Positions 5,488-59,362 are shown, counted from the first letter of the stretch. The stretch is DNA of 64,000 nucleotides from Myxococcota bacterium (GCA_039024335.1 JBCCQM010000015.1:3781-67780), one strand, 5' to 3'. Translations and numbers: made by a program. Notes: generated by a model not told the origin, from the sequence alone.

Positions 5488-5501
5488 GTTAGCGTGCGCC
5501 C

Positions 5502-6005
5502 GTGCTGAACTTCACCCTCGAGCACGAGATCGACTGCAGCGTCGAGCGCTTCTGGACGCTCTTCTTCGACGCCGACTTCACGCAGAAGATGATCTGCGAA
5601 GGCCTCGGCTTCGGCCGGTGCGACGTCGGTGAGACCGTCGACAAGGGCGACCTTCGCGTCCGCCCCATGCAGGTCACGCCCAAGCTCGAGCTGCCCGCCG
5701 CGGTGGCGAAGGTCCTCGGCCCCAAGCTGGGCTACACCGAGGCCGGTACGTACAACGTCCCCAAGGAGCGGTGGCACTACGAGCTGAAGATGAGCGTGCT
5801 GACCGACCGCATCTCGATCTTCGGTGACGTCACGGTCAAGCCGCTGGGCGACGACAAGTGCATTCGCGTCAGCGAGCACGGCGTGAAGATCAAGATCTTC
5901 GGCATCGGGTCGATGGCCGAGCGCGCCGCCGAGGCAAACATGCGCGACGGCTGGGGCAAGTCGGCGGTGTGGATGAACCGCTGGCTCGCGGACAACCCCG
6001 CCTAG
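5502..6005 (+). CDS. SRPBCC/START-like protein (DUF2505-like)
   Basis: 167-aa ORF with good codon bias. Sequence style (MLNFTLEHEIDCSVERFW...) resembles the DUF2505 polyketide-cyclase-like fold family. Confidence 0.7.
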   Translation: MLNFTLEHEIDCSVERFWTLFFDADFTQKMICEGLGFGRCDVGETVDKGDLRVRPMQVTPKLELPAAVAKVLGPKLGYTEAGTYNVPKERWHYELKMSVLTDRISIFGDVTVKPLGDDKCIRVSEHGVKIKIFGIGSMAERAAEANMRDGWGKSAVWMNRWLADNPA

Positions 6006-6075
6006 CGCGACGTGCGCATCGTCGTGGTGCAACCGCGCCCGCACAACGCTGACACCATTTGGTGACACGATCGAT

Positions 6076-6885: not shown

Positions 6886-6891
6886 GCCGCG

Positions 6892-7653: not shown

Positions 7654-7728
7654 GGACCCAGGGTACGGGCAGAACGCCGGGTGCGGCCATGCCCAGCGTC
7701 ACCACGAATGGCGAGGCCTGCCGGGCAC

Positions 7729-11149: not shown

Positions 11150-11224
11150 GGCGGGCGTAGCTCAGTCGGTTAGAGCGCCGGTTTGTGGTACCGGAAGTCG
11201 TGGGTTCAAATCCCATCGCCCGCC
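11150..11224 (+). tRNA. tRNA-His (anticodon GTG) with genomically encoded G-1
   Basis: Manual cloverleaf: G-1, acceptor GCGGGCG/CGCCCGC, D arm GCTC-AGTCGGTTA-GAGC, anticodon arm CCGGT-TTGTGGT-ACCGG, variable AAGTC, T arm GTGGG-TTCAAAT-CCCAT, discriminator C73 pairing with G-1. No encoded CCA. Confidence 0.93.
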
Positions 11225-36807: not shown

Positions 36808-39765
36808 TCAGCGTGCCGTGGAGCCGGTGTACGCGGCCCGAAGCTGCGCCAGCGTCCGGTGGACCCGGGCCGTGCCGCCGTAGGTGACGCGCAGCGACGC
36901 GTCCGCCGCACGCGACCCGACCACGCCCAGCCGCAGCAGGCCGTGGTCTCCGAGCGCCGACTCCACGGCGTCCGCGTCGGCTGCCGACGACGTGAACAAG
37001 ATCCTGCCCGTCGACTCGGCGTACAGCCACCCGTATGCACCCAGCTCCGAAAGCGTCGGCAGCGTCACGTCGATGCTGCGGGCGCTCGACAGCACCGCCC
37101 GCGCCAGACCCAGCGCCAAGCCCCCGCGACCGAGCGCGTCCGCCGAGCGCACCAGCGTGGCGTCACGCGCCTCGACGAAGGCACGGTACGCAGCGGCGAG
37201 CGCTGCGACGTCGGTCTGTGGGACCGCGCCGGAAAACGCCCCGCCAAGCCGCTCCGCCGAGCTCCCGCCCAGCTCTCGGTGCGTCATTCCGAGCAGCCAC
37301 ACCACGTCGCCATCGGTGCGCGGCTGCAGGGTCAGCGCAGCCGCAACGTCGGGCATCTGCCCCATCACGCTGACGAGCAGCGTCGGCGGGATCGAGATCT
37401 TGACCCCGTCGAGCATCGCGTCGTTCTTCATCGAGTCCTTGCCGCTGATCAGCGGCACGCCGTAGGCCTCGCACGCGTCGCGAAGGCCACGACAGCACAG
37501 CACCAGCTGTGCGAGCTTGTGCTCCCCGTCCGGGGTTTTCTCGGACTGGATCGGGTCGGGCCAGCAGAAGTTGTCGAGCGCCGCGACCCGGTCGAAGCGC
37601 GCGCCGGCACAAAGAACGCGCCGAACGCCCTCGTCCACACACGCCTTGGCCATTGCTTCGGCGTCGTCCGCCGCAAAGAACGGTGCGATGCCTTCGCCAA
37701 GCACGACGCCTTCGGACCGACCATGGCGCGTGCGCATGACCGTCGCCGTGGACCGGACGTCCCGCTGCACGCCGATCCAAGGCTTGACCACCGAGAGGCC
37801 CTTGACCTCGTGATCGTAGCTGCGGCACAGGTCCACCGCACAGGCTTCCTCCGGTGAGCCGAGCAGCGCATCGAGCCGCTCGGCCACGCCATCATCGCTG
37901 CGCCAGCCCTCGGGAACGCCATCGACCTGCACGGAAAGCTCGTCGAGCTTGGCCCGCAGCGGCGTCTTCACCCAGCCCTCGTGCAGGAACTCGAGCGTCA
38001 GATCGACCACAGGCGTCTCCCCGTGCGTGACGACGAAGCGCCCCGAGTCGGTGAACGTTCCCAGGTCCGTGGCATCGACCTCGCGCCGCGTGGCCAAGGC
38101 CATGAACGCGTCGAGATGCTCGGGCGGCACCGCGACGGACATTCGCTCCTGCGCCTCGGAGATCAGAATCTCCCAGGGCTCCAGGCCGGGGTACTTCAGG
38201 GGCGCCCGCGCCAGGTCGATCTGCGCGCCCCCGGTGAACTCTGCCATCTCTCCGATCGAGCTCGAAAGGCCACCCGCGCCGTTGTCGGTCATGCCGCTGA
38301 GCAAGCCCGCGTCGCGAGCCTCGGCGAGCATGTCGAACATCATCTTCTGCGTGATCGGGTCGCCGATCTGCACCGCCTGCACTGGGGCGTTCTCGTCGAG
38401 TTCGGCGGAGGAGAACGTCGCCCCATGAATGCCGTCTTTGCCGATTCGCCCGCCGAGCATCACGATGTGGTGCCCAACCTCGACCGGCTTCTCGTGCGTC
38501 GGCACGCCCGCGCGCTCGGCCGGCATCACGGCCGCCGTGCCGCAGTACACCAGCGGCTTGCCGAGGTAGCGGTCGTCGAAAAGCTCGAAGCCGCGGCTGT
38601 ACGGCACCCCTGACTGGTTTCCGCCGTCGACGACACCCCGGTGGACGCCGTCGCGAATCCGCCGCGGATGCATCAGGCCGGCAGGAATCGAACCGTCGAA
38701 GTCCGGTCGCGCAAAGCAGTAGCCCCACACGTTGGTCAGCAGGTCCGCGCCGCGTCCGGTGCCGAAGCTGTCTCGGTTCACCCCCACGATTCCCGTCATC
38801 GCGCCGCCGTACGGGTCGAGCGCCGACGGGGAGTTGTGCGTCTCCACTTTGTAGACGAGGTGGTCGTCCTCGGTGAACCGCACCACGCCGGCGTTGTCGT
38901 GAAATACGGACACCAAGAACGGTGCCTCCGCAGGGTCGACGCCGGCCGCGAGCCGGGCCTCGGCAATCGACTCCGTGGCGCCGCGAATGAACGTGCGGAA
39001 CAGCCCCTTTTCGATGCGCTGCACCGAACCGTCATCGTCCTCGAAGTCGATCGGAGCCGCGAAGATCTTGTGCTTGCAGTGCTCGCTCCACGTCTGCGCG
39101 AGACACTCGAGTTCAGCGTCGTTGGGATCGCGGCCGAGCTGCTCGAAGTGCACCGCGATTGCCTTCATCTCGGCGAGCGACAGCGCGAGCATGCCGTCGC
39201 GGGAGATTGCGGCCAGCGTCTCGTCGTCGGCGGTCCGCAGCGGCACGGTCTTCACCGACGGTGACGCGTCCGTTCCCGCCTTGGGAACGCTGCGGTCGAG
39301 CGTTCGCGATTGCGTGGACACCGTGACGGTCTCGATCACCGGGTTGCACAGCACGGCCGTTGCCGCCCGCGCGAGCGCGTCGGCGTCCACCCCCCAAAAG
39401 AGGTAGAGCGTCGACGCGTACGCGTTGCCCTGCAGACTCCGGCCCAAGCAGTCCTCGGCAGCCCGCTTCACGCTGGCCCCGACCGTGTCGGTCACACCCG
39501 GCTTGAAGCCCACCGCCGCCCACGCCTGCGCCCCGTCATCGTCGAGCATCGCGAGGCTACCCGTCTCTGCGACGGGGTCGGTCAGCGCGGCGAGGACCGT
39601 GGCGGCCTCGTCCTCCTGCAGGCCGAGATCGAGGTGATAGATCCGCCGCGTCTGAACGCGCTGCGCCTCGATGCCCGCCCACGACCGCAGCCGCGCCGCG
39701 GTCTCGGCCGCGAGCGCGTCGCCGGCGAGTGGAGTGGGCTGGATCTCGAGCCGATGGACCGTCAC
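36808..39765 (-). CDS. purL: Phosphoribosylformylglycinamidine synthase, PurS-PurL fusion-type large subunit
   Basis: AIR-synthase-related duplicated domains (e.g. VETHNSPSALDPYGGAMTG, DNGAGGLSSS). A ~200-aa N-terminal extension occupies the place of PurS. GTG 39765 is preceded by GAGGAA. 985 aa. Confidence 0.9.
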   Translation of the reverse strand: MTVHRLEIQPTPLAGDALAAETAARLRSWAGIEAQRVQTRRIYHLDLGLQEDEAATVLAALTDPVAETGSLAMLDDDGAQAWAAVGFKPGVTDTVGASVKRAAEDCLGRSLQGNAYASTLYLFWGVDADALARAATAVLCNPVIETVTVSTQSRTLDRSVPKAGTDASPSVKTVPLRTADDETLAAISRDGMLALSLAEMKAIAVHFEQLGRDPNDAELECLAQTWSEHCKHKIFAAPIDFEDDDGSVQRIEKGLFRTFIRGATESIAEARLAAGVDPAEAPFLVSVFHDNAGVVRFTEDDHLVYKVETHNSPSALDPYGGAMTGIVGVNRDSFGTGRGADLLTNVWGYCFARPDFDGSIPAGLMHPRRIRDGVHRGVVDGGNQSGVPYSRGFELFDDRYLGKPLVYCGTAAVMPAERAGVPTHEKPVEVGHHIVMLGGRIGKDGIHGATFSSAELDENAPVQAVQIGDPITQKMMFDMLAEARDAGLLSGMTDNGAGGLSSSIGEMAEFTGGAQIDLARAPLKYPGLEPWEILISEAQERMSVAVPPEHLDAFMALATRREVDATDLGTFTDSGRFVVTHGETPVVDLTLEFLHEGWVKTPLRAKLDELSVQVDGVPEGWRSDDGVAERLDALLGSPEEACAVDLCRSYDHEVKGLSVVKPWIGVQRDVRSTATVMRTRHGRSEGVVLGEGIAPFFAADDAEAMAKACVDEGVRRVLCAGARFDRVAALDNFCWPDPIQSEKTPDGEHKLAQLVLCCRGLRDACEAYGVPLISGKDSMKNDAMLDGVKISIPPTLLVSVMGQMPDVAAALTLQPRTDGDVVWLLGMTHRELGGSSAERLGGAFSGAVPQTDVAALAAAYRAFVEARDATLVRSADALGRGGLALGLARAVLSSARSIDVTLPTLSELGAYGWLYAESTGRILFTSSAADADAVESALGDHGLLRLGVVGSRAADASLRVTYGGTARVHRTLAQLRAAYTGSTAR

Positions 39766-39793
39766 GGCACGTTCCTCGCCCCCACCTTCGCAC

Positions 39794-39845
39794 CTGTCAA
39801 CCCCGCCCGCGCGAACGCCGAGGCGCGCGTTCGCGCTCTTGACAG
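39794..39845. promoter_or_regulatory. Nested palindrome between the divergent purL and wHTH genes
   Basis: Outer arms CTGTCAA (39794-39800) / TTGACAG (39839-39845). Inner perfect 10-bp arms GCGCGAACGC (39809-39818) / GCGTTCGCGC (39827-39836). Each outer arm reads TTGACA toward one of the two divergent genes. Confidence 0.6.
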
Positions 39846-40006
39846 TGGCGCACGCCCCGAGCACCATTCGGACGCGTCTTCCGACAGGCTGGCGCACCGT
39901 TGGAACGTTGTTGGGCCTTCGACCTCACATTGAGGCACGACCCGAGACGCTCGCAACGGGGGAGAACGCGCGACGCGACGTCGCGACGGGGGTTGGGACG
40001 AGCGAT

Positions 40007-40585
40007 ATGAGTCCAGCACGACGAGCCACTGCAGAGGTCGACGAAACGACCGACACGTCCGACGACACCGTCGACGCACAACACGACGCCGCTGAGCCGG
40101 CGGACGAAGCGTGGGCGGAGTCCTTGCGCGACGTCATGCGCAGCGTCATCGCGTCCCTACCTGACCGAGCCACGCTTGGCGAGCTGGTCGACGCAACCCG
40201 GACCAACCCAGCGATCGCGCCCGTCCTCGACATCTTCACGATCGCCGAGCTCATCGAGACGGCGAAGAAGAAGCCCAAGCCCAAGCCAACCCCTCAGGTC
40301 GACGCGGACGGAATGCCCCCGATGGAGCTCGATGCCGGGCCCAAGGTGATCCGACGCCGCGCCGACGTGCCCGACGGAGATCTGCGGGTGCTGCGGGCGC
40401 TCGCGAGTTCGGGCCCGCTCAAGGAGAGCGAGCTGGTGTCGAACACGCAGCTCACCAGCGAGCAGCTGCGCATCATCGTCCGTCACCTTCGGACCAAGGG
40501 CTACATCCACGTCGAAGGCAGCGGCGCCAAGCGTCGAGTAAAGATCACCCGCAACGGCAGCGGGTTCCTGCGCAAGCAGGGCTGA
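40007..40585 (+). CDS. Hypothetical acidic protein with C-terminal winged-helix (MarR-like) DNA-binding domain
   Basis: 192 aa. Acidic N-terminus, KKKPKPKP linker, and C-terminus LRVLRALASSGPLKESELVSNTQLTSEQLRIIVRHLRTKGYIHVEG. Confidence 0.65.
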   Translation: MSPARRATAEVDETTDTSDDTVDAQHDAAEPADEAWAESLRDVMRSVIASLPDRATLGELVDATRTNPAIAPVLDIFTIAELIETAKKKPKPKPTPQVDADGMPPMELDAGPKVIRRRADVPDGDLRVLRALASSGPLKESELVSNTQLTSEQLRIIVRHLRTKGYIHVEGSGAKRRVKITRNGSGFLRKQG

Positions 40586-40703: not shown

Positions 40704-42248
40704 TCAGCCAGGCGTGACTGCGGTCTCCTGCAGAATGCCGGTGAGGCACTCGATCGCAGGCGAGAAGTCCGAGTCGCAGATCGACTCGATGCAGCAGCGA
40801 ATCTGCTCGACACCCTCTTCGTCGGTGAAGTTCAGGCTCTCACAGACCTCTTTGACGCGGACCGGCGGAATCGCCTGACCGGTGAACGAGCCATCGTCGT
40901 TTTGGCCGGTACAGCCGGGGCCGATGCTGCCGAACTGGAACCGCTTCACGTCAGCGGTGACGCCGTTCGCCCACTCGTCGGGCAGGATGTCGCCCTCGGG
41001 GTCGCCGCCGAACTCACCATCGACCCAGTCGCGGTACTCGAGGTCGAAGACCCCGCCTGCGATCGGCTGGAACGGAGGTTCTTCGTTGCGCTCGGTCACC
41101 GGCGGAACGCCGAGGATGCCGAGCATGATGACCTCTTTCTCCTGCTCCTCGCGGAGCCACTGGAGATACGTGGTGTAGCGCTCGACCGAGTGCAGCGCCC
41201 CGGCGTCGTCGCTGGAGCAGGTCTCGTACACCCCATCGCCATCGCTGTCTTCACACTGTACGCCGGCGTTCCAGCACACGGCCGAGCTGGCCTGCTTGCC
41301 GTCGGTCTCCGGGTTGGTCGCCCAGAACTGGTCGTCCTCGGTGAAGTAGCTGAAACCGCCCGGCGGCGTGACGGAGCAGTCGGACTCGTCGGTGATGATG
41401 ACGACGGCGAGCGTCGCGTCCTCGCGCAGGAACCCGCGCTTGAGCGAGCCAAACTCGCCTTCATCGCAGCGCTCCTGCTCGGGGTCGTTCCAGCACGACG
41501 TCGGGTTGATCGCCTGCAGCATCGACTCCAGCGGAGCTTCGTAGCCACAGCCGTCGATGCCCTGCGGACCCACGCACGAGAGCGCGGCCGCGACGTCGTC
41601 GTTGGGCACGTTGGTCTTGGCGACGTCGAAGTGAATGTAGGGCTGACCCGGCGCGATGTCGGTCGGGCAGTTTTGCGTGCACGCCTCGTTGACCACCGTC
41701 GGGTCCTCTTCCTCGAGGCCCGTGAAGCGCTGGATCCGGGTGTTGCAGCCGGTGTAGACCGGCGCGCCCTGGCGCGGGTCGTAGTCGGGCTTCTCGAACG
41801 GCGTACACAGCGGGTGACCCATGTCGGTGGTCGTCACCATGATGTTGACGCTCGGGTTCACCATCTTGCCCTCGGAGTCCTGGAGGCTCTCCAGCTTCTC
41901 GACGAGCAGCGGGAAGTTCGCAGCGAGGTTGAGCTGCTCCTCGCCCATGGTGCCGCTGTTGTCGATGACGAAGAGAAGATCGATCTCGTTGCAGCTTCCG
42001 TCGCCCGCACACCCCGGAAGCTGCCCGGTGGATGCGTTGCCGACGTCGAGCTTTTCCTCGTCGTCGCCCGTGGAGTCCGCGCCTTCCGAGTCGTCGGCGC
42101 CGGTCGGCGAGGTGACGGGACCTTCCGTCGCCGTGCCCACGCCATCCGTCGCCGTCTCTTCCTCTTCGCGAGGTGCTTCCGTGCAAGAGGCCGTAAGGAC
42201 CAAAGCCATGGCGGCCGCGAGACCGCTGATCGAGTTGTTTGCCATCAT
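40704..42248 (-). CDS. Cysteine-rich lipoprotein with vWA/MIDAS-like core (paralog 1)
   Basis: ATG-ATG at 42248 preceded by GGAG. Lipobox LVLTASC, acidic linker, IDLLFVIDNSGTMGEEQ (DxSxT MIDAS-like start), VVIITDESD. 20 Cys after the lipobox by my count. Confidence 0.8.
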   Translation of the reverse strand: MMANNSISGLAAAMALVLTASCTEAPREEEETATDGVGTATEGPVTSPTGADDSEGADSTGDDEEKLDVGNASTGQLPGCAGDGSCNEIDLLFVIDNSGTMGEEQLNLAANFPLLVEKLESLQDSEGKMVNPSVNIMVTTTDMGHPLCTPFEKPDYDPRQGAPVYTGCNTRIQRFTGLEEEDPTVVNEACTQNCPTDIAPGQPYIHFDVAKTNVPNDDVAAALSCVGPQGIDGCGYEAPLESMLQAINPTSCWNDPEQERCDEGEFGSLKRGFLREDATLAVVIITDESDCSVTPPGGFSYFTEDDQFWATNPETDGKQASSAVCWNAGVQCEDSDGDGVYETCSSDDAGALHSVERYTTYLQWLREEQEKEVIMLGILGVPPVTERNEEPPFQPIAGGVFDLEYRDWVDGEFGGDPEGDILPDEWANGVTADVKRFQFGSIGPGCTGQNDDGSFTGQAIPPVRVKEVCESLNFTDEEGVEQIRCCIESICDSDFSPAIECLTGILQETAVTPG

Positions 42249-42512
42249 GTTGCTCCGCAGTTGCTGGGCACTGAGGTCGACCCGAGCCCGCCCCCCAGCG
42301 GGTTTCGGTCTTCCGACGAGTCTTGCAAAGGGTCGACGGGACGGCAACCGCTACGGCGCCGTCGCAGCATCGACTCCGCGCACGGGACGTGAGTTCGGTC
42401 GCGGCTTCTGAGTTGGCGAGTCCATCTCCCTACACGCAGCGAAGGCCCCCGTGCTGGAGCACGAGAGCCTTCACGTTGGATCCAGCCCGGGTCGTATCCC
42501 GAGCGGAAACGG

Positions 42513-44063
42513 TCAGCCCGGGACCACGATCGCCTCGCCGATGATGCCAGCGAGACACTTGATGGCCGGCGAGAAGTCGTCGTCGCAGATCGACTCGATG
42601 CAGCACCGGATGTCCTCCGTGCCGTCGCCGTTGTCGATGTTGAGCGACTCGCAGACCTCTTTGACGCGGACCGGCGGAATCGCCTGCCCCGTGAAGCCGT
42701 TGACCGCGTCGCCACCGGTGCAGCCGGGGCCGACGCCGAAGTCGAACTGCTTGTCGGCCGCGGTCACGCCACCGGCAAACTCGTCGGGCAGGATGTCGCC
42801 GCCACCGGGGATGCCGGTGAACTCACCGTCGCGCCAGTTGCGGTACTCGAGGTCGAAGACCCCGCCCGCGAGCGGCTCGAAGGGCGCCACCTCGTTGCGC
42901 TGGGTAACCTCCGGAACGCCGAGGATGCCGAGCATCACGACCTCTTTCCCCTGGTCCTCACGCAGCGAGTTGATCAGGTAGTTAGTGTAGCGCGAGATCG
43001 GCTGCAGCGTCTCCGCGGTGCTCGACGAGGCGCAGTCGCTGTAGACGCCGTTGGCGTCGGGGCCCTGGCAGCTGACGCCCGCGTTCCAGCAGATCGCCGA
43101 CGACGACTCGGGCATGCCCGAACCGGGCTCCACCTCTTGGTAGGTGGCGTCGGTCATGATGTCGTAGTTCTGGACCGAGCAGTCCGCCTCGTCGGTGATG
43201 ACCGCGATCGCAAGCAGCGCGTCGGGTCGCAGGAACGGGCGCGCGCCCTGGTTCCACTCTGCGCTGGGGTTGAGCGCCTGCAGCATGTTCTCCAGCGGCG
43301 ACTCGTAGCCACAGCCGTTGATGCCCTGCGGGCCGATGCAGCCCAGCGCCTGCGCAACCGGGCTGTCGGGAATGCCGTCGTTGTTGATGTCGGCCTCGAC
43401 GATGTTGTCCGGGATGTTGTCCATCCCGTTGCTGAACGCCACGAACGGGTCGCCCTCGGGCGCAGCACCGGAGACGCACGACGCGGTGCAGGCCTCGGGC
43501 ACGACGTCGGGGTTGCTCCCCAGACCGGTGAAGTCGTTGATCCGCTGCGTACACGGCGTGGTGATGGGCGCACCACGGGAGGGCTCGTAGCCTTCGGGCT
43601 CGAACGCCGTGCACAGCGGGTTTCCGAAGTCGGTGTTGGTCACCATGATCTGGACATCCGGATTGACCTCGTTGCCCATCGAGTCGGTCAGCCCTTCGAG
43701 CTGCTGAACGAGCAGCGGGAAGTTCCGCGCCAGGTTCTCCTGCTCGACCGCCATGGTGCCGCTGTTGTCGATGACGAACAGCAGGTCGATCTTGTCGGTG
43801 CAGCCCAGGTCGCTGCCGCCGCAGCCGCCGCCGGGGCCCGAACCGCCGCCGCCGACGTCGAGCTTTTCGCCCGTCTCGTCGCCACCGTCGTCATCGACCA
43901 TGCCGGTGCCGCTGTCGGTGGCGGTGCCGCTGATCGTGGCCGACGCCGAAATCGTGCCCGGCGCGGTCGCCGAGCCATCGTCGCCACCGCCGCCGCCGTC
44001 GTCACACGACGCGATCGACATCACCATCACACCAGCAAGAGCCAGACTTTCAAGTCGTTTCAT
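42513..44063 (-). CDS. Cysteine-rich lipoprotein with vWA/MIDAS-like core (paralog 2)
   Basis: ATG 44063 preceded by GAGGAA. Lipobox MSIASC. IDLLFVIDNSGTMAVEQ, IAVITDEADC. 18 Cys after the lipobox. Collinear with paralog 1 along the whole length; the C-terminus FTGQAIPPVRVKEVCESLN...IRCCIESICD.DFSPAI.CL is nearly identical. Confidence 0.8.
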   Translation of the reverse strand: MKRLESLALAGVMVMSIASCDDGGGGGDDGSATAPGTISASATISGTATDSGTGMVDDDGGDETGEKLDVGGGGSGPGGGCGGSDLGCTDKIDLLFVIDNSGTMAVEQENLARNFPLLVQQLEGLTDSMGNEVNPDVQIMVTNTDFGNPLCTAFEPEGYEPSRGAPITTPCTQRINDFTGLGSNPDVVPEACTASCVSGAAPEGDPFVAFSNGMDNIPDNIVEADINNDGIPDSPVAQALGCIGPQGINGCGYESPLENMLQALNPSAEWNQGARPFLRPDALLAIAVITDEADCSVQNYDIMTDATYQEVEPGSGMPESSSAICWNAGVSCQGPDANGVYSDCASSSTAETLQPISRYTNYLINSLREDQGKEVVMLGILGVPEVTQRNEVAPFEPLAGGVFDLEYRNWRDGEFTGIPGGGDILPDEFAGGVTAADKQFDFGVGPGCTGGDAVNGFTGQAIPPVRVKEVCESLNIDNGDGTEDIRCCIESICDDDFSPAIKCLAGIIGEAIVVPG

Positions 44064-51233: not shown

Positions 51234-53333
51234 ATGGTTTATGGAGGTCGCGTTGGGATCGCTGCGTCTTGGCTCGCTGTCGCGGTGGCGATGACGGCCT
51301 GTGGAGACCTCGGAGAGGACTTCGCCAGCGGCGCCGGTGCTGAAGATGGTGATACCGACGGTCCCGGCAATGCGGACACCGACAACCCGACACCCGTCGA
51401 CGGCGACGACGACACTGCAACCACGGACGACCCGGAAAGCACCGGCGCCGAGAGCGGCGGGAGTGATGATGGAGGGACCGACGGCGAAGACGACGGGTCT
51501 GGAGCCGTCTGCGACCTCGAGTGCGGGGAAAGTGGCTGGTGCGACTACGACGACAATGGCGCCCCGACCTGTGCATGCGACGAGGGGTTTGCATCCACCG
51601 GCCTCGGCTGCGTCCCGTGTAACCCGGTCGAAGACGGCGTCCTGCCAGGCCTAGTGCCGAGCATCGAAGCCACGTTCACGATTTCGGTCAACGAGGATAC
51701 GCCTGACGCGAGTCCCTACGACTTCGGTCGCATCGAGCTGCGGAATCGGGCAACGGGCGACCGAGTCGAGCTGGGCCGCACGGCTGATGAGACACTGACC
51801 GCCCGCATCGTGCCCGGAACCTACGACGTGCTTTACAGCGTCGTCGAAGCCGGCGCGACGGTCCCGAAAAACCGCGGTGCCGTGCTGAGCACCGTCGAGC
51901 TTACGGAGGACGGTACCGAGCTCAAGATCGACGTCCCCACCGCATCCATCGCCGGTAGGATCACCGTAGGCGGCTCCACATCGGCAAGCAACGTCTACAA
52001 CTTCGGGCGGCTCTGGCTGGTCAACAAGTATACCGGTGACCGCGTCCTGCTCGGAACGACGAGGGACCCGCAGTACAGCGCCCGCGTCATTCCTGGTGAC
52101 TACGAGGTCCGCTACGAGGTGCGCGAGAACGACGGAGACGTTCCGTCCAACTTCGACGGCTTCGTCTCCAATCTCTCGGTCGGCCAAGACGACGACGCGT
52201 TGGATATCGACGTTCCACTCGTTCGCTACAGCGGCGACGTCACCATCGACGAGCAGAGCGTCGGCAGCCCGTACGAGGGCGGACGACTCGAGCTTCGCGA
52301 CGTCGACACGGGCGACGTCTTCTCCATCGGTGACACACGCGACGAGGAATTCGACATCGCCGTACTGCCAGGGAGCTACGAAATCCTGTACACGCACCTC
52401 GAGGGCGGGGACGCAGCGCCCGTGAACAAGGGCGCCATCCTCGGAACGATCGACCTGCCCGAACCCGACAACGGTACCGGCGCCGTCACGAGCGACATCA
52501 AGATCAAAACGGTCGTCGTCTCCGGTGGGTTCCAGCTCGGGGACTCGACGCCTCCGGGCAATACCGCCGACGACGGCGTCATCAGCCTCGAGAGCCCCAT
52601 GTGGGGCACGGCAGTGCTGGGGAACACCCACGACGGCGCCTACGTCTCGCGCGTGATTCAGGGCGAATACGACGCGTACTACGCTCAGGAGACGGCCAGC
52701 GTGGTGATGCCGAAGAACACGCACGCCAAGCTCTCCGAAAAGCCATTCACGCTCATGAGCGAGGCTATGACGATCGAGATCCCCGTCGTCGAAGTCACCG
52801 GCAACCTCACCATCGGAGGGGTCGAGGCACCGGACTCCCCGTACGACGACGGTCGGCTGTACCTACGCAACCGAGACACCGGCGACTCCGTGCTCTTGGG
52901 CAACACCCGACTGGGCACGTACGCGGCCCGCATCGTGCCCGGCACGTATGACGTCGTGTACGAGAACGAGTTCAGCGACACCCAGCTGCCGATCAACCGC
53001 GGCGCGGTCGTCCGAACCGACGTCACAGTGGACGTCGAGAACGACCAGCTCGACATCGATGTTCCCGTCTCAACCGTGGTCGGCGACATCGAGATCGGCA
53101 ACAGCACGCCCGAACTCGCCGAGGGTCTTGGGCAGTTGTTCCTGGTCGACCGCGCGAGCGGCGACGAAATCTTCATCGGACATACCGGCGCAGCATCGTT
53201 CGCACGCCCGCTCACCGACGGCACGTACCTGATGGAGTACCGGGGCGTCGCCGCCGAGGGAGCCACCTTGGGCGACTCGCTTCCGGCGAACGAGCGCGCA
53301 GTGTTCGCCTGTTTCAATCTCAGCGCAGAGTAG
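51234..53333 (+). CDS. Lipoprotein with EGF-like Cys knot and six ~93-aa repeats (paralog A)
   Basis: Lipobox VAMTAC and an acidic D/T/G linker. Cys knot CDLECGESGWCDYDDNGAPTCACDEGFASTGLGCVPC. Six modules share Y.FGR(L/I).L.N..TGD...LG.T....Y.AR(I/V).PG.Y.V.Y.....G..(V/L)P.N....IDVP. Confidence 0.8.
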   Translation: MVYGGRVGIAASWLAVAVAMTACGDLGEDFASGAGAEDGDTDGPGNADTDNPTPVDGDDDTATTDDPESTGAESGGSDDGGTDGEDDGSGAVCDLECGESGWCDYDDNGAPTCACDEGFASTGLGCVPCNPVEDGVLPGLVPSIEATFTISVNEDTPDASPYDFGRIELRNRATGDRVELGRTADETLTARIVPGTYDVLYSVVEAGATVPKNRGAVLSTVELTEDGTELKIDVPTASIAGRITVGGSTSASNVYNFGRLWLVNKYTGDRVLLGTTRDPQYSARVIPGDYEVRYEVRENDGDVPSNFDGFVSNLSVGQDDDALDIDVPLVRYSGDVTIDEQSVGSPYEGGRLELRDVDTGDVFSIGDTRDEEFDIAVLPGSYEILYTHLEGGDAAPVNKGAILGTIDLPEPDNGTGAVTSDIKIKTVVVSGGFQLGDSTPPGNTADDGVISLESPMWGTAVLGNTHDGAYVSRVIQGEYDAYYAQETASVVMPKNTHAKLSEKPFTLMSEAMTIEIPVVEVTGNLTIGGVEAPDSPYDDGRLYLRNRDTGDSVLLGNTRLGTYAARIVPGTYDVVYENEFSDTQLPINRGAVVRTDVTVDVENDQLDIDVPVSTVVGDIEIGNSTPELAEGLGQLFLVDRASGDEIFIGHTGAASFARPLTDGTYLMEYRGVAAEGATLGDSLPANERAVFACFNLSAE

Positions 53334-53346
53334 AGAGAATCAAGCG

Positions 53347-55416
53347 ATGGCGCGTCCGAAGTACATCCAGACCCGAACGTCCGTGACGCTGATCGGCGCG
53401 ATGTTATGTGCGGGCGGATGTTCGCTCGAAGACGTGGCCAGCGCAGACGCCAACGCCGATACCGACACCGGTAACTCGACGCTCTCGTCAGGAACCGGAG
53501 ACGACGGCGGTGACGTCACAGGCTTGACCGCAGATACGGCGGGCGACGATTGGACTGAAGGGACCGGTCCTGGTTGGGATACGGACACCGATCCGACGGA
53601 TGCCGATCAAGAAGGCACCTGCAACCTCGACTGCGGGCAGGGTGGGTACTGCGACGAAAGCAACGACGTCCCCACGTGTGTATGCGACCCGGGCTTTGCC
53701 TCGACCGGCCTCGACTGCGTGCCCTGCGAGACGATCGCGGACGGCACCCTGCCGGGCATCGTCCCCGCCGTTCGGGCGGCCTTCGAGTTCAGCATCAACG
53801 GAGACGTCCCGCCCCAAAGCCCCTACGACTTCGGTCGCCTCGAACTGCGCAACCAGGCCACCGGTGACGCCGTCCCCCTGGGCCGCACCAACGATGACGG
53901 CGCCTCACTCCTCGTCGTTCCCGGGAAGTACGACGTCCTGTACCGCCTCGTCGAGGGTGGAGAGGCGCTTCCCACCAACGAGGGGGTCGTGCTCGAGACG
54001 TTGGCGATCTACGAAGCGGCCGGGACCTATGCGATCGACATCCCGTACGCTCACTACACGGGTCGAATCAGCGTCAACGGCGAGGCGAACGTCAGCAACG
54101 TCTACAACTTCGGCCGTCTGTGGTTGGTCAACCCCTCGACGGGTGACCGCGTCTCTCTGGGCGATACGCGCGCCACGCAGTTCAGCGTCAACGTCGTTCC
54201 TGGCCGTTATGAAATCCGCTACGAGGTCCGCGAAAACGACGGGCTCGTCCCTGCAAACCGCAGCGGCCTCATCCAGGAGATCGACATCGTCTCTGACACG
54301 GAGCAGGACATCGACGTCCCGATGGCGACCTACACCGGGGAGATCACCATCGACGGCACCGCGGTCGAGTCCCCCTACGAATGGGGCACGCTGGAACTGC
54401 GCGACATTGCAACGGGCGACGTCTTTCCCTTCGCGCAGACGAACGATGCCGCCTTCTCCGTCAACCTCATCCCGGGCGACTACGAAGTCCGCTACACGTC
54501 CCAAGAAGGCGGCGACGCGGCCCCCATCAACCGTGGCGCCGCGGTGGGCCTGGTCTCGATCAACGAAGACACGGAGGGTGCGATCGACCTGCACACGGCG
54601 CAGGTCAGCGGCGCCTTTACGCTCGCGGGTGAAACCCCGCCGGGCAGCACAGCCGACGACGGGGTCGTGATGCTCCAGGGGGAGACCGGTGGCACAGCGC
54701 TGTTGGGCAACACCCACGATGCCGCCTACTCAGCTCGAGTTCTCGTTGGCGCCTACGAGGTGGTCTACGCCCAGGAAACCGCAAGCCTGAACATGCCCGG
54801 CAACACCCACGCGGTGCTGACCAAGGCTGAGGTCGTCTCGGACGACTCGCTCTCGATCGACATTCCGGTCGTGGAGGTTACGGGCACGCTGACGATCGAC
54901 GGAGACGAGGCACCGAACTCTCCGTACGACGACGGGCGCCTCTACCTGCGCAACGCAGAGACGCGAGACTCGGTCTTGCTCGGCAACACGCGCTTGGGAA
55001 CCTACGCAGCCCGCATCGTCCCCGGAACGTACGACGTCGTGTACGAGAACGAGTTCAGCGACACGCTGCTGCCGCTGAACCGAGGCGCGATCGTGCGTTC
55101 GGGCGTCCAGATCAACCCCGACCAGAGCACGCTCGACATCAACATCCCGGTGTCGGTGCTCTCTGGAGAAGTCGAGATCGACGGCTCGATCCCGTCACTC
55201 GACGAAGGCCTCGGCCAGCTCTTCTTGGTGGACCAGGCCAGCGGTGACGAGATTTTCATCGGCCACACGGGAGCCACCGCGTTCACGCGACCGCTCACCG
55301 ACGGCGTCTACATGGTGCAGTACCGCGGGGTCGCGGCAGAGGGCGCGTCGCTGGGGACGTCCTTGCCTGCCAACAGCAAAGCCTCGTTCGCCTGCATCGA
55401 AGTCGTCAGCGAGTGA
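53347..55416 (+). CDS. Lipoprotein with EGF-like Cys knot and six ~93-aa repeats (paralog B)
   Basis: Lipobox LCAGGC. Cys knot CNLDCGQGGYCDESNDVPTCVCDPGFASTGLDCVPC. Collinear with paralog A, from which it is separated by 13 nt. Confidence 0.8.
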   Translation: MARPKYIQTRTSVTLIGAMLCAGGCSLEDVASADANADTDTGNSTLSSGTGDDGGDVTGLTADTAGDDWTEGTGPGWDTDTDPTDADQEGTCNLDCGQGGYCDESNDVPTCVCDPGFASTGLDCVPCETIADGTLPGIVPAVRAAFEFSINGDVPPQSPYDFGRLELRNQATGDAVPLGRTNDDGASLLVVPGKYDVLYRLVEGGEALPTNEGVVLETLAIYEAAGTYAIDIPYAHYTGRISVNGEANVSNVYNFGRLWLVNPSTGDRVSLGDTRATQFSVNVVPGRYEIRYEVRENDGLVPANRSGLIQEIDIVSDTEQDIDVPMATYTGEITIDGTAVESPYEWGTLELRDIATGDVFPFAQTNDAAFSVNLIPGDYEVRYTSQEGGDAAPINRGAAVGLVSINEDTEGAIDLHTAQVSGAFTLAGETPPGSTADDGVVMLQGETGGTALLGNTHDAAYSARVLVGAYEVVYAQETASLNMPGNTHAVLTKAEVVSDDSLSIDIPVVEVTGTLTIDGDEAPNSPYDDGRLYLRNAETRDSVLLGNTRLGTYAARIVPGTYDVVYENEFSDTLLPLNRGAIVRSGVQINPDQSTLDINIPVSVLSGEVEIDGSIPSLDEGLGQLFLVDQASGDEIFIGHTGATAFTRPLTDGVYMVQYRGVAAEGASLGTSLPANSKASFACIEVVSE

Positions 55417-55470: not shown

Positions 55471-56784
55471 TCAGCTGCGCCCGAGGACGCCCGTCAGCCA
55501 GAGGCTCAGCCCCTCGTTGAACGTGATCGTCAGCAGCGCGGCCAGCATGAGTATCAAGAACGGTAGCGCGTACCGGTAGAGCTTCACGACCGGCTTGTCG
55601 AACGCCAGCGACGAGATGAACAGGTTCAGCCCGACCGGCGGGGTGATGTAGCCGATCTCCAGGTTGGCCAGGAAGATGATGCCCAGGTGCAGCGGATGCA
55701 CGCCGTACTCGGCGGCGATCGGGGTGATGAGCGGCACCACCACGACGATGGCCGAGAAGATGTCCATCAAGCAGCCGACGATCAGCAAGAAGACCGTCAG
55801 CAGCAGCAGGAAGGTGAAGCGGCTCTCCACCGCGCCCGAAATGGCCGCGAGGATCTTCATCGGCACCTCCTCCTGCACGAGGAAGTTCGTCAGGCCCAGC
55901 GCGACGCCGAGAATCAGCAGGATGGCGCCCACCATCACGCTCGCCTCACGAATGACTTTGTCCAGCGAGGGGACCTCCGGGTCGGACGAGAAGAGCTTGA
56001 GGTCCTTGTAGATGAACACCTCGACGATGACGAGGTAGATGGCGCAGATCGCCGACGCTTCGGCGATGGTCACGAGGCCGTCGGTCAGGCCCGGCACGCC
56101 GTAGATGGCGACCAGCACCACCACCGGCACGGCGAGCTCCCACTTCGCCTGCCATGTGGCGGTCATCGCTTCACCGAGGTCGAACGGGGTGCGGTTGACC
56201 TTGCGCTGGTTGCCGACGAACAGGCTGTAGCCGCCGAGCACCAGCAAGAAGATGGCGCCGGGCACGATGCCCGCGACGAACAGCGCGTCGATGCTGGTCT
56301 TCGCGACAATGCCGTAGAGGATGATCGGCAGCGACGGCGGGAACAGCAGGCCGATCGAGCCCGAAGACGTGATGAGCCCGAGGCTGAAGTTCTCCGGGTA
56401 CCGCTCCTTGACCAAGATCGGATGCAGCAGGCCCCCGAGCGCGATGATCGTGACGCCCGACGCACCGGTGAACGTGGTGAAGAAGGCGCAGGAGGCCACG
56501 ACCACGAAGCCGAGTCCACCCGGCAGCCACCCCAGCAGCGCGCGCGAGACCCGAACGAGACGGTCGGCGGCCTTGCTCTCGGCCATCACGAACCCCGCAA
56601 GGGTGAACAGCGGGATCGTGATGAGGTGCGGGTTGGTGGCGAGCTTGTAGTGCTCCTCGCTGAGCACGACCAGGTCGGTGCCCGCGGAGGAGAAGTTCAC
56701 GATGCCCATGCCGCCCAGCACGCTGAACAGCGGGGCCCCGACGAGGGCCAGCAGGATGAGTACGAGTGCGAGCAGCGCGGTCAT
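55471..56784 (-). CDS. dctM: TRAP transporter large permease subunit (DctM family)
   Basis: 437 aa with about 12 TM segments and a typical DctM N-terminus (LLALVGAPLFSVLGGMGIVNF). ATGA overlap with the upstream small-subunit gene. Confidence 0.9.
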   Translation of the reverse strand: MTALLALVLILLALVGAPLFSVLGGMGIVNFSSAGTDLVVLSEEHYKLATNPHLITIPLFTLAGFVMAESKAADRLVRVSRALLGWLPGGLGFVVVASCAFFTTFTGASGVTIIALGGLLHPILVKERYPENFSLGLITSSGSIGLLFPPSLPIILYGIVAKTSIDALFVAGIVPGAIFLLVLGGYSLFVGNQRKVNRTPFDLGEAMTATWQAKWELAVPVVVLVAIYGVPGLTDGLVTIAEASAICAIYLVIVEVFIYKDLKLFSSDPEVPSLDKVIREASVMVGAILLILGVALGLTNFLVQEEVPMKILAAISGAVESRFTFLLLLTVFLLIVGCLMDIFSAIVVVVPLITPIAAEYGVHPLHLGIIFLANLEIGYITPPVGLNLFISSLAFDKPVVKLYRYALPFLILMLAALLTITFNEGLSLWLTGVLGRS

Positions 56785-58274
56785 CGGTCGTCCCCTTCGT
56801 CTTCGTCTTCGCCCTTGTCGTCGTCGGCGTCGGCCGACGCCTCAGCCTCCGCGCCTGCCGAATCCTCTTCGTCGGCAGCATCATCGGCGTCCGCGTCCGC
56901 GTCCGCGTCATCGGCGTCAGCGTCATCGGCATCCGCGTCATCGGCATCTGCCGCATCGCCCGTCTCGGCCGACGCCCCTCCGGGCGCGGCTTCGGCCGGC
57001 ACGTCGTTGAGGGCCGACTCGAGCAGGCGCACGCTGAAGTGCAGCGCCAGAAGCCCGAAGCCCACCGGGAACATCAGCTGGAACATCCAGTCGTCCGCGA
57101 ACGGCGCGACCTCCTTCGGATACTCGCGGCTGATGTCGACCAACTTTTGGCCAGCATTGGCCAGCGTAAGGCAGACGGCAATGGCCAATCCGTTCGTAAC
57201 CACGCCAGCCCATCGATTGACCGCCGGTGGCAAAAGCTTGCTAGCTGCGTCGATGTTGATGTGTTTCCGACGAGCCGTGGCCAGCGCTCCACCCAAGAAA
57301 GACATCACGATCACGAGCTGACGCAAAAGGACATCGATCCAGTCGAGCTTGATGTCGTCGATGAGGGTCACCATCCGCGCGGCAAAGGACCCCTCCGGCG
57401 GCGGTCCGCCCTTGGGCCTCTCATCGACCTCATGGGCCGGGGCGTCGATCTCCTGCAGGTTGTCGAAGACGTCGTCGTCGCCGAAGTCGTCGGCCTCGTC
57501 TTCTTCGTCCGCGGGGTCGGCATCGCCGGAGTCCGCTGCGGCCGGCTTGGGCTTTGCGCCGCCGAACGCACCGCCGAAGCCCTCGTCGTCCTCTTGACCG
57601 CCGGAGTCGTCCCCGCCGCCGAATGCCCCACCAAAGTCTCCGCCGTCTTTCTTGGCGACCGGCTCGTCCTCTTCGGACTCGTCCTCATCGCGGCCGAACG
57701 CGCCGCCGAAGTCTTCTTCGTCCTCGACCGGCTTGGGTTCCGGTGCAGGCTTGGCATCCTCGTCGTCTCGGCCGCCTCCGAACGCCCCGCCGAAGTCCTC
57801 ATCCGCGTCGTCCGCAGCGGGCTTCGGCGCCGGCTTGGAAGGCTCTGCATCCTCGTCGTCTCGGCCGCCGCCGAACGCACCGCCGAAGTCTTCATCCGCG
57901 TCGTCCGCCGCGGGCTTCGGCGCGTCGCCGTCTTCAGGATCGTCGTCGCCGCCGCCGGAACCGCCGCCACCGAACGCGCCACCGAACTCACTCTTCTCGG
58001 TTGGCGTATCCCCGGCCGGCGCGGGCGCCTCGGGCTTGGCGTCCGCCGGCTCGGGTGCAGCCGGGGTGCCAGGCACCTCATGCGCGGCTGGCTCCACCGG
58101 CGGGCCGCTGTGGGCCCAGTGGACCTGCAGCGGCACCAAGATGTTGCGGTAGACCACGTTGTAGCCAGCGAGGGCCAGCATCAGCAAGACGATGCCGACC
58201 AGCGCGGCCCCCTCGAGCCGCACAAGCTGTGCCTCCAGCGCGCGGAGCCGATTCATGCTCCGCTTGTACCGCAT
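56781..58274 (-). CDS. dctQ: TRAP transporter small permease subunit (DctQ family) with a large acidic FG-motif insertion and an acidic C-terminal tail
   Basis: DctQ-like TM1 (GAALVGIVLLMLALAGYNVVYRNIL) and TM2-4 (LDWIDVLLRQLVIVMSFLGGALATARRKHINIDAASKLLPP...). About 250 aa of low-complexity sequence separates TM1 from TM2-4. Start is ATG 58274 or 58256; the ORF is open to 58313. Confidence 0.8.
   Translation of the reverse strand: MRYKRSMNRLRALEAQLVRLEGAALVGIVLLMLALAGYNVVYRNILVPLQVHWAHSGPPVEPAAHEVPGTPAAPEPADAKPEAPAPAGDTPTEKSEFGGAFGGGGSGGGDDDPEDGDAPKPAADDADEDFGGAFGGGRDDEDAEPSKPAPKPAADDADEDFGGAFGGGRDDEDAKPAPEPKPVEDEEDFGGAFGRDEDESEEDEPVAKKDGGDFGGAFGGGDDSGGQEDDEGFGGAFGGAKPKPAAADSGDADPADEEDEADDFGDDDVFDNLQEIDAPAHEVDERPKGGPPPEGSFAARMVTLIDDIKLDWIDVLLRQLVIVMSFLGGALATARRKHINIDAASKLLPPAVNRWAGVVTNGLAIAVCLTLANAGQKLVDISREYPKEVAPFADDWMFQLMFPVGFGLLALHFSVRLLESALNDVPAEAAPGGASAETGDAADADDADADDADADDADADADADDAADEEDSAGAEAEASADADDDKGEDEDEGDDR
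57558..57986 (-). repeat. Coding tandem repeats encoding six (D/E)FGGAFG motifs, including two near-identical 93-bp units
   Basis: The units at about 57738-57830 and 57831-57923 align with a 93-nt period (AACGC[C/A]CCGCCGAAGTC[C/T]TCATCCGCGTCGTCCGC...). They encode APKPAADDADEDFGGAFGGGRDDEDA twice. Confidence 0.9.
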
Positions 58275-58354
58275 TTCGCCCCCGCGCTGGATCTCCAGGC
58301 GGGGGCGCATCATCCCCGGCGGGAGGCCGGAGGGTCAGAGTCGAGGCGTCTCGA

Positions 58355-59362
58355 CTACAGGTAGCTGTCCATCTCGGCAACCAGGTCGGCGTCGAACGTG
58401 GACCCGACCAGCTTCTTGCGCACGCCCTTGGCGATGGCCTTCCACTCGTCCATGTTCGTCGGCTCGACGACCTGCACGCCCTTCTCGGTGAGCGTGGCGA
58501 CGGCTTTCTTGTTGTCCTTTCGAATCCGCTTGACCAGCTTGGCCCCGTATTCGTTCGACACGTCCATCAGCAGCTGCTTGTGATCATCGCTGAGCTTGCC
58601 AAAGCTCTTCTGCGAAATAACCGAGGCACCCAGTCCCATCGCCATGCGTAGGTTCGTGACGTACTTGATCTTCGAGTACCACTGCAGCGAGATGAGGGCG
58701 TAGGGCGAGCTCGCGCACGCATCGATGACGCCGGTTTGAAGGCTTGGCAGCACGTCAGGGACGCTCAGCTCCACACCGTTGACGCCCGCGACTTCGGCGG
58801 TGACTTTGGTGACGGGGTCGGCATCCCAAACCCAAAACTTCGTGGACTTGAGGTCGGAGGGACTCGCGACGGGCGTGTTCGAGAACGGGTACAGAAACCC
58901 TACGTCGCCCCAGTTGCTGAGATGAAACCCGCCGTCGGCGAAGAGCTTCTCGAAGCTCGGCTTCATCTTCTCCCGGACTCGGTCCACCTGCTTGTAGTTG
59001 GAGAACAACATCGGGAACTGCATCATCAGCACCTGTTTGTTGATCTCCCCAAGGCCGACCGAAGTGACGGCGGCGCCGTCGAGCTGCCCGGTCCGGCACT
59101 TCCGAATCATGGCTGGCTCATCCCCCATGACGCCACCGACGTAGACCTGCATCTTGATTGCACCGTCGGACCGCGCCTTGACCTCTCGTGCAATCATCTT
59201 GAAGGCCTTCGCCCAGCTCGAGCCGTCAGGGGCGAGCGAGGCGATCTTCAAGGTGTGTTTCGCTTCCCCTTTGGCGATGAGCGGGGCGCCAACCGCGGCG
59301 ACACCGGCAGCGGCGGTGGAGGTGCGAAGGAAGGTGCGTCGGGTCGGCTTCTTCAGCGTCAT
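58355..59362 (-). CDS. dctP: TRAP transporter substrate-binding protein (DctP family), Tat signal
   Basis: MTLKKPTRRTFLRTSTAAAG twin-arginine leader. DctP-like core (LKIASLAPDGSSWAKAF, GAIKMQVYVGGVMGDE). Confidence 0.88.
   Translation of the reverse strand: MTLKKPTRRTFLRTSTAAAGVAAVGAPLIAKGEAKHTLKIASLAPDGSSWAKAFKMIAREVKARSDGAIKMQVYVGGVMGDEPAMIRKCRTGQLDGAAVTSVGLGEINKQVLMMQFPMLFSNYKQVDRVREKMKPSFEKLFADGGFHLSNWGDVGFLYPFSNTPVASPSDLKSTKFWVWDADPVTKVTAEVAGVNGVELSVPDVLPSLQTGVIDACASSPYALISLQWYSKIKYVTNLRMAMGLGASVISQKSFGKLSDDHKQLLMDVSNEYGAKLVKRIRKDNKKAVATLTEKGVQVVEPTNMDEWKAIAKGVRKKLVGSTFDADLVAEMDSYL

Follow-up and report, generated by a model that had tools for sequence, protein, structure and literature searches.

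Tandem cysteine-rich lipoproteins with a predicted integrin beta I-like vWA fold in a Myxococcota genome

We analyzed a 64,000-nucleotide stretch of DNA from a Myxococcota bacterium (GCA_039024335.1, JBCCQM010000015.1:3781-67780), the whole of which is called the window below, in which two adjacent minus-strand genes, A and B, encode cysteine-rich proteins that each carry a lipobox. Judging from their nearest studied relatives, A and B are probably lipid-anchored, tethered and disulfide-stapled von Willebrand factor A (vWA) proteins of the integrin beta I-like kind, most likely acting in metal-dependent adhesion. What is new here is the size of a superfamily that lacks Pfam coverage, its 12-cysteine signature, its two loop-defined subtypes and the locked position of the tandem. 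All coordinates are counted from the first letter of the window, and those of the features discussed are collected in Table 1.

The initial annotation described adjacent, collinear minus-strand paralogs of 514 and 516 amino acids, and the open reading frames (ORFs) and BLASTp results agree with this description: the two proteins align over their full length with 52% identity (E = 5e-166). The frame of A stays open upstream as far as a TTG codon at 42347; because six close orthologs share the Met-Met start, the 514-residue call was kept. A tblastn search of the 64 kb found no third copy of the family. Translation confirmed in both proteins the lipobox, the acidic linker, a Cys pair, IDLLFVIDNSGTM and ITDE(A/S)DC, as well as a near-identical C-terminus (FTGQAIPPVRVKEVCESLN...IRCCIESICD.DFSPAI.CL.GI), and it placed the extra loop CWNDPEQERC in A and not in B. 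The cysteine counts of 20 (A) and 18 (B) given earlier are exact for the mature proteins, and become 21 and 19 when the lipobox Cys is included. This shared pattern of motifs and cysteines lies far beyond chance, the same cysteines and motifs being invariant in more than 1,000 database homologs.

Predicted fold, conserved residues and family

Each protein opens with a signal peptide that ends in the lipobox, and the linker that follows is rich in G/D/T/E/S in both; its length and acidity are kept among the orthologs of B. No transmembrane helices were found in A or B. We take both to be exported lipid-anchored proteins, presumably exposed at the cell surface. A Lys-His-Lys n-region (MMKHKTLGV...) is kept in all six close orthologs of A and has been lost in A itself.

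AlphaFold2 models of both proteins were built on a 44-sequence alignment. Mean predicted local distance difference test (pLDDT) and predicted template modeling (pTM) scores were 82.6 and 0.81 for B, and 83.8 and 0.82 for A. In both models the first ~85-87 residues, corresponding to the signal peptide and linker, score below 50, and the remainder is mostly above 90 (~350 residues above 90; residues 88-516 in the case of B). The order of secondary-structure elements, beta1-alpha1-beta2...beta4...alpha-beta5...alpha-beta6-alpha, is that of the vWA topology. The elements of the B model are a strand at 91-98, a helix at 105-123, a strand at 136-143, helices at 235-243 and 256-263, a strand at 283-289, a helix at 356-371, a strand at 375-381, a helix at 465-472, a strand at 487-491 and a helix at 498-511. 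As modeled, these appear to fit the vWA beta-alpha-beta order with three long, cysteine-rich insertions, at approximately 144-234, 290-355 and 382-464.

When the models were compared with the PDB by Foldseek, almost all of the top 50 matches had the vWA fold, for A and B alike. The best match was the integrin beta I-like domain 7usl_B (E = 1.6e-3, probability 0.98), and others included the Sec23/24 trunk, collagen VI, the pilus adhesins RrgA and SpaC, PTMP1 and ANTXR2. Sequence profiles run against the PDB matched the vWA domains of collagen VI (E = 1.9e-4) and MIC2 exactly on beta1-DxSxS-alpha1; the matches were weak and covered only ~50 residues, with narrow and wide profiles alike. The ITDE region of B also aligns weakly to the "FLTDG" of collagen VI. 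[quoted passage not shown] A Rossmann-like core is predicted around the DNSGT motif. In the models, support for the vWA fold class comes from the consistency of the matches and not from their strength.

The near-invariant C-terminus of both proteins could be read as a separate module. Most simply, however, it would be the last helix-strand-helix of the same vWA domain together with an insertion, as indicated by the secondary-structure order and by a full-length profile alignment, in which the C-terminal block of B aligned to a distant subfamily through residue 514.

Motifs common to A and B are DNSGTM, VT(T/N)TD, GCGYE and ITDE(A/S)DC, and a small Cys-Cys loop (CGGSDLGC and CAGDGSC in the two proteins) precedes the first strand. 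Among the 44 aligned members, the lipobox Cys, D99, N100, S101, G102, T142, T143, D145, E254, D291 and E292 (B numbering, used throughout) are invariant or nearly so; position 103 is Thr or Ser, and in the wider subfamily it is Ser (DNSGSM). D99, S101 and T103 after strand beta1, and D291 after strand beta4, occupy the classical positions of vWA MIDAS ligands and would be expected to bind metal. The spacing of T142/T143 from DxSxS matches that of T693, a putative MIDAS residue of the Myxococcus xanthus protein CglD, and we take E254 to be a candidate for the integrin-beta-like Glu.

All 18 mature cysteines of B are invariant or nearly so in the 44-sequence alignment, and 12 cysteines (151, 171, 192, 196, 242, 251, 295, 325, 332, 344, 448 and 493) are ~100% conserved in 237 sequences that include distant members. 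Cysteine co-occurrence showed that C81 and C88 are gained or lost together (phi 0.96), and that C471, C487 and C488 form a group specific to the narrow family. The pairing resolved in this way is limited to these two sets, and the remaining cysteines never vary.

The more than 1,000 homologs of A and B come from a word-indexed search, and none has a Pfam domain on record; where a name is given, it is "hypothetical" or "vWA domain-containing protein". Where a taxon is named, homologs belong to the Nannocystaceae, Myxococcota and "Deltaproteobacteria" metagenome-assembled genomes (MAGs), plus Paraliomyxa miuraensis, and the phyletic distribution of named homologs is confined to these groups. Searched exhaustively with a profile, 1.84 billion cluster representatives (50% identity) yielded 8,536 clusters with E values of 1e-3 or less; 3,287 of them remained at a limit of 1e-10 and 336 at 1e-30, and about 50 of the clusters found align over the full length. 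Narrow-family genes are multi-copy, with at least 4-6 per genome, and further subfamilies accompany them. When an alignment of 76 distant members was compared with the narrow family by hhalign, the two matched over residues 86-514 (probability 100%, E = 3.9e-91), and one distant subfamily is again a Nannocystaceae expansion. A distant subfamily of 540-600 amino acids (P0181, P0187, P0244) has a C-terminal extension of ~120 residues with eight further conserved cysteines, absent from A and B, and lacks the long A/B insertion between strand beta5 and the GPGC motif.

The sole curated family matched directly by A and B is NCBIfam NF052240, the Bd0875-type MIDAS adhesin. All 76 distant members match this model as well (best E = 3.8e-15), with a maximum of 55.9 bits vs the 700-bit equivalog cutoff, and 50 of them match the vWA region of the CglD model NF033765 (positions ~643-822, best E = 7.6e-15); the matches of relatives as a whole are confined to positions ~625-822 of that model. 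A CglB model did not surface among the NCBIfam results for A, B and their relatives. We rejected A and B as equivalogs of NF052240 or NF033765, the scores being far under the curated cutoffs. Pfam, NCBIfam and homolog searches place A and B in no already characterized family. Pfam does not cover the family, and the Pfam and NCBIfam matches of A and B are marginal and N-terminal only. A literature search found no paper on the Nannocystaceae family itself.

Tandem conservation and two loop subtypes

Among GTDB species genomes, 346 stretches encode relatives of A and B, and the best 76 loci belong to isolates (Paraliomyxa miuraensis, three Enhygromyxa salina strains, Plesiocystis pacifica SIR-1 and Nannocystaceae bacterium ST9) and MAGs, one of them from a Nannocystis sp. 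The order leuS, B-type gene, A-type gene, purL was found in 27 analyzed loci, including Paraliomyxa, Enhygromyxa, Plesiocystis and ST9. In the conserved loci the upstream gene is always closest to B and the downstream gene to A. Both orthogroups retain DNSGTM, VT(T/N)(T/S)D, GCGYE and TDE.(D/E)C as far as the extracted sequences extend over these motifs. The leuS-purL site holds one copy in L020, L021 and L067 and three in L018, and many solitary paralogs sit outside this site. The three family genes of the L018 MAG (3607-8516) are two of the DxDxDG type and one of the Cys-loop type, and the single genes of L020 and L021 are of the DxDxDG type.

The two loops that define the subtypes flank an invariant AQAL.C.GPQGI.GCGYE.PLE segment. 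The motif D(I/V)(N/D)(G/N/A)DG..D(S/G), which we take to be a DxDxDG-type calcium-loop signature, was found in 24 of 28 B-type genes, the remaining four having close variants of it, and in none of 28 A-type genes. Two cysteines occur at the site of the extra disulfide loop in 19 of 28 A-type orthologs, and a CWN(D/N)P...C loop occurs in exactly one gene of 27/28 pairs: the A-type gene in the clade of the window, and the B-type gene in the Enhygromyxa/Plesiocystis/ST9 clade. In the latter clade (L036, L038, L040, L042, L044, L049, L057, L059) the upstream gene has both loops and 23 cysteines, and the downstream gene has neither the DxDxDG loop nor the Cys loop. This swap of the Cys loop suggests reciprocal loss after duplication. 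The 27 solitary paralogs comprise 12 with the calcium-type loop only, 11 with the Cys loop only, four with neither and none with both. The distribution of loops in pairs and solitary paralogs indicates that the family consists of two old subtypes, and that the tandem keeps one of each in the clade of the window (19/28 pairs). A and B are presumably not redundant copies, and the loops may contribute to specificity.

Spacer, neighboring genes and feature coordinates

B and A are separated by a spacer of 264 bp. The hairpin that follows the stop codon of B is found at the same site in six relatives (L005-L010), with the pairing kept, the stem sequences different and a U-rich tract after it, of which the window has a degraded form. 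The hairpin probably serves as an intrinsic terminator that consensus scanning overlooked: a scan of the spacer for promoter and terminator consensus (sigma-70) returned nothing significant, and the hairpin and boxes emerged only from comparative alignment and folding. Together, the hairpin, the TTTGACA-like box and the GGAG site make A and B look like adjacent yet separate transcription units. Rfam yielded nothing near the pair, its only match in the whole window being a single tRNA gene (11151-11224, plus strand).

The neighbors of the pair in the window are leuS, purL, a peptidase S9 gene and unannotated genes, a housekeeping context that is uninformative about function. No secretion, sortase or MoxR genes and no recurrent partners were found in the window, the syntenic loci or two loci of solitary paralogs.

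Several other genes in the window were recorded. A second pair of tandem paralogs lies upstream of leuS (51234-53333, plus strand, 699 aa; 53347-55416, plus strand, 689 aa; 59% identical, E = 0). The N-terminal stretch of each is Cys-rich and EGF-like, and both contain internal repeats (GD.V.LG.T.D...VPG.Y.V.Y), with weak CopC or transthyretin-like Pfam matches only, and similar-sized genes occupy the same place in L001 and L003. An ORF at 39671-40585 (plus strand), convergent with A and located between the pair and purL, has a weak C-terminal winged-helix match (DUF6293_C, E = 7e-4). The real start codon probably lies further downstream than the ATG listed, since the 5' part of the ORF overlaps purL on the opposite strand; a 196-aa gene holds its position in L003. 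A complete set of TRAP transporter genes (DctM, a 510-aa ORF containing DctQ, and DctP) is located at 55471-59362 (minus strand), and the syntenic Paraliomyxa locus L001 likewise has a DctM gene at its edge.

Table 1. Coordinates of genes A and B and of features within and between them (aa, amino acids).
Feature	Position	Strand	Basis
Gene B (upstream paralog), 516 aa, ATG start; DxDxDG (putative calcium-loop) subtype	42513-44063	-	ORF
B signal peptide and lipobox, MKRLESLALAGVMVMSIAS before C20 (IASC)	44004-44063	-	Translation; C20 invariant in 44-sequence alignment
B acidic disordered Gly/Asp/Thr/Ser-rich linker, aa 21-80 (60 aa)	43824-44003	-	D+E 12 vs K+R 1; pLDDT <50
B DxSxT, D99-N-S101-G-T103, right after strand beta1 (aa 91-98); start of putative MIDAS	43755-43769	-	44-sequence alignment
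B VTNTD, aa 141-145, end of strand beta2; T142/D145 invariant, candidate extra metal ligands	43629-43643	-	Alignments
B DxDxDG loop DINNDGIPD, aa 225-233; B-subtype hallmark	43365-43391	-	Ortholog comparison
B GCGYE, aa 250-254, E254 invariant; within superfamily-wide PQGI.GCG(Y/F)E.PLE block	43302-43316	-	Alignments
B ITDEADC, aa 289-295, end of strand beta4 (283-289); D291 putative MIDAS Asp (TDG position)	43179-43199	-	Alignment, model
B C-terminal conserved block, aa 443-516, GPGC...PPVR.KEVCE...RCCIESICD.DFS.AI.CL.GI, 6 cysteines	42516-42737	-	A/B and family alignments
GC-rich terminator-like hairpin right after B stop codon	42439-42474	-	Fold -53 kcal/mol, z = -5.0
TTTG(A/C)(C/A)A.ACTC box (TTTGACA-like), candidate promoter element for A	42318-42329	-	Invariant columns, 7-genome alignment
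GGAG ribosome-binding site, 4 nt upstream of A ATG	42253-42256	-	Alignment, translation
Gene A (downstream paralog), 514 aa, Met-Met start; disulfide-loop subtype	40704-42248	-	ORF
A signal peptide and lipobox, MMANNSISGLAAAMALVLTAS before C22 (TASC)	42183-42248	-	Translation, ortholog comparison
A acidic disordered linker, aa 23-79 (57 aa)	42012-42182	-	D+E 16 vs K+R 2; pLDDT <50
A DxSxT, D96-N-S98-G-T100	41949-41963	-	Alignment, translation
A extra disulfide loop C252-WNDPEQER-C261; A-subtype hallmark in the clade of the window	41466-41495	-	Ortholog comparison
A ITDESDC, aa 285-291; D287 putative MIDAS Asp after beta4	41376-41396	-	Alignment, model, translation

Proposed role and comparison with known systems

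An adhesive role is suggested by the nearest studied relatives, CglD and CglB in gliding and Bd0875 in prey entry. Published work documents for all three a lipoprotein anchor, richness in disulfides and a function that depends on the MIDAS, and these proteins are our guide for metal binding, surface exposure, the nature of the ligand, adhesion itself and the function of the loops. Following them, A and B would be exported by the Sec pathway and lipidated at the lipobox Cys, and oxidative folding in the periplasm would form the nine or ten disulfides that staple the vWA head, which would be displayed on an acidic flexible tether of ~60 residues. In B, the MIDAS would be formed by D99, S101, T103 and D291, with T142, D145 and E254 as possible added ligands or parts of neighboring cation sites. 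The MIDAS face would bind its ligand in a cation-dependent manner tuned by the two subtype loops, and the ligand could be the substratum, a matrix polymer, a neighboring cell or a prey surface. As a pair, A and B probably offer two binding specificities, or act as partners.

Several observations weigh against this reading. The Foldseek scores are weak, with E values of 1.6e-3 or higher, TM scores of 0.2-0.25 and a root-mean-square deviation of ~12-13 Å over ~300 columns. Pfam VWA (PF00092) matches A at 13.2 bits (E = 0.1, residues 90-112), under its cutoff of 23.8, and does not match B. NF052240 is matched by A and B only marginally (E = 6e-4 and 1.7e-3; 17.6 and 19 bits) over 36 residues (87-124), and the CglD model NF033765 (cutoff 400 bits) is matched by neither at E <= 1. 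Within the putative MIDAS, the third residue of the DxSxS-type motif is Thr and not Ser, and the fifth ligand, canonically Thr, is ambiguous between T142/T143 after beta2 and E254. The signal peptide of A (MMANNSISG...) has no positive charge before its hydrophobic core. In B, the lipid-modified Cys is followed by Asp at +2 and +3, which under the established Lol-avoidance rules keeps a lipoprotein in the inner membrane in E. coli. Near the pair, no adhesion or motility genes were found in the window, the syntenic loci or the two solitary-paralog loci, and the sequencing runs that contain this DNA are marine and biofilm metagenome DNA runs, with no RNA runs among them.

Some of these points would suit periplasm-facing, non-adhesive lipoproteins with a part in scaffolding, cation buffering, or envelope assembly and stress, like BatA/BatB or MoxR-associated vWA proteins. 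vWA domains are general protein-interaction modules, leuS and purL make a housekeeping neighborhood, B has Asp at +2/+3 and no surface-export machinery is nearby. However, the Asp at +2 of B is not conserved, its orthologs usually having Gly there, and neither protein has a transmembrane helix. The closest named families related by sequence are both surface adhesins, and heavy disulfide stapling with a long acidic tether is typical of exposed proteins. The comparison with BatA/BatB raised by the initial annotation also gave a negative result: Bat proteins are anchored by transmembrane helices and encoded with MoxR AAA+, DUF58 and Bat partners, whereas A and B are anchored at a lipobox, and no MoxR AAA+, DUF58 or Bat-type partner is encoded in the window or the syntenic loci. 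We consider a periplasmic role unlikely.

The adhesive reading can also be carried further, to an obligate two-chain bacterial "integrin" in which A and B would contribute a disulfide-loop head and a calcium-loop head, respectively, and which would stand in for CglB and CglD as the principal adhesin with which marine Nannocystaceae bind substratum or prey. Co-evolution of two partners, and not independent specificities, would then account for the locked position of the ancient tandem and for the way in which its loops complement each other almost perfectly. This extension seems improbable to us.

We see little chance that the pair is the Nannocystaceae equivalent of CglB, as its ortholog or functional replacement, which, once loaded into the Glt outer-membrane platform, would be unmasked in focal adhesions and so connect the Agl-Glt motor with the substratum. 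The recipe published for CglB does match, with a lipobox near residue 20, DxSxS within a vWA domain and numerous disulfide cysteines; members of the superfamily match the other gliding adhesin, CglD; and the cultured hosts of the family are myxobacteria, a group known for gliding. However, the family is multi-copy, whereas CglB is described as a single essential gene, and the beta4 Asp lies 180-192 residues after DxSxS in the family (192 in B) vs 155 in CglB. The N-terminal part of A and B is a disordered tether and not a folded beta-jellyroll, and no Agl or Glt genes were found in the 64-kb window or the paralog loci, which covers local context only. One family member of 396 amino acids (P0196; lipobox Cys 21, DNSGS at 56) was considered as a CglB candidate and rejected, because its beta4 Asp is at 236 and not 211; it is a truncated ordinary member of the superfamily.

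That the vWA likeness is superficial, with a novel cysteine-knotted fold that carries DxSxT and has an unrelated, for example enzymatic, function, is hardly credible: the low TM scores, a best Foldseek E value that does not reach 1e-3 and the sub-threshold Pfam match would allow it, but two independently modeled paralogs both retrieve vWA proteins at nearly every top-50 rank, the secondary-structure order is that of vWA with the motifs at the canonical strand ends, and relatives reach E values of 1e-14 to 1e-15 against curated vWA adhesin models.

Read as tethered, integrin-like adhesins, A and B bring no new principle, and their value is incremental. Adhesion by integrin-like vWA/MIDAS lipoproteins has been worked out in a few predatory bacteria only (CglB and CglD in Myxococcus, Bd0875 in Bdellovibrio), and the same building block is enormously expanded in marine myxobacteria. 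The sequences assembled here are material for a new protein-family definition, and for work on attachment, gliding and prey capture in poorly studied, natural-product-rich bacteria, of which the cultivable Enhygromyxa, Plesiocystis and Paraliomyxa carry the tandem.

Among known systems, A and B both find their best structural match in the integrin beta I-like domain (7usl_B, 4g1e_B, 3nif_D; probability up to 0.98). In this domain a vWA core is elaborated by insertions and has a DxSxSM-type motif, a disulfide-bonded specificity loop and extra cation sites flanking the MIDAS; the specificity loop and cation sites parallel the Cys loop and the DxDxDG loop of A and B. Identity is only ~10-15% and the TM score ~0.24, A and B have no alpha-subunit partner, a lipid anchor takes the place of the transmembrane helix, and the insertions are different and larger. 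Tip adhesins of pili in Gram-positive bacteria and of fimbriae in Bacteroidota (RrgA 2ww8, SpaC 6m3y, GBS104 3txa, Mfa5 6tnj) are likewise vWA/MIDAS surface adhesins with inserted arms, and were retrieved with A and B by both fold and sequence searches. They differ in being sortase- or fimbria-linked and multidomain, are neither lipoproteins nor cysteine-rich, and have no detectable close sequence relationship to A and B.

CglB, a 416-aa cysteine-rich vWA lipoprotein, is essential for Myxococcus gliding (PMC9946355). Compared by its published description, it shares with A and B a lipid anchor, a vWA/MIDAS domain and disulfide-stapled loops. CglB is alpha-I-like and has a second, small beta-jellyroll domain, whereas A and B best match beta-I-like domains and have the disordered tether in front. 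Its MIDAS (D56/S58/S60/T182/D211) starts 36 residues past the lipobox, vs 99/101/103 and 291 in B after a 60-aa tether. The parallel with CglB is an analogy; links that can be demonstrated by sequence lead instead to CglD, through its vWA domain, and to the Bd0875 family. Bd0875 is a lipobox MIDAS adhesin required for proper prey invasion by Bdellovibrio (PMC11003981). Bd0875 and Bd1483 of Bdellovibrio bacteriovorus resemble A and B in the lipobox, the vWA/MIDAS D-x-S-x-S motif, the disulfides predicted and, in addition to the MIDAS, an acidic residue that is conserved. Matches of A and B to the Bd0875 model span only beta1 to ~beta2, and the N-terminal region of A and B (21-87) is predicted to be disordered, without N-terminal strands or a composite N- and C-terminal beta domain; A and B have 9-10 potential disulfides.

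CglD of M. xanthus is a cysteine-rich, integrin-beta-like lipoprotein in which the MIDAS is reported to be functionally important, the D656N variant being compromised for gliding-dependent flare formation (10.1101/2023.10.19.562135). Like A and B, it combines a lipid anchor with a disulfide-stapled integrin-beta-I-like vWA domain and a DxSxS-type motif, followed ~35-40 residues later by a Thr (T693; T142/T143 in B) and then by a later Asp, and as reported for CglD, integrin beta is the top fold match. CglD is much longer (1130 aa) and has COMP-like calcium-binding and EGF-like regions, whereas A and B consist of one globular domain behind a disordered tether, and the spacing between the MIDAS Asp residues is 192 residues in B vs 143 in CglD, with the larger insertions in B. 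A and B would belong with a kind already known, the cysteine-rich vWA/MIDAS lipoproteins that serve predatory Myxococcota and Bdellovibrionota as adhesins, but they stand outside the CglD, Bd0875 and CglB families.

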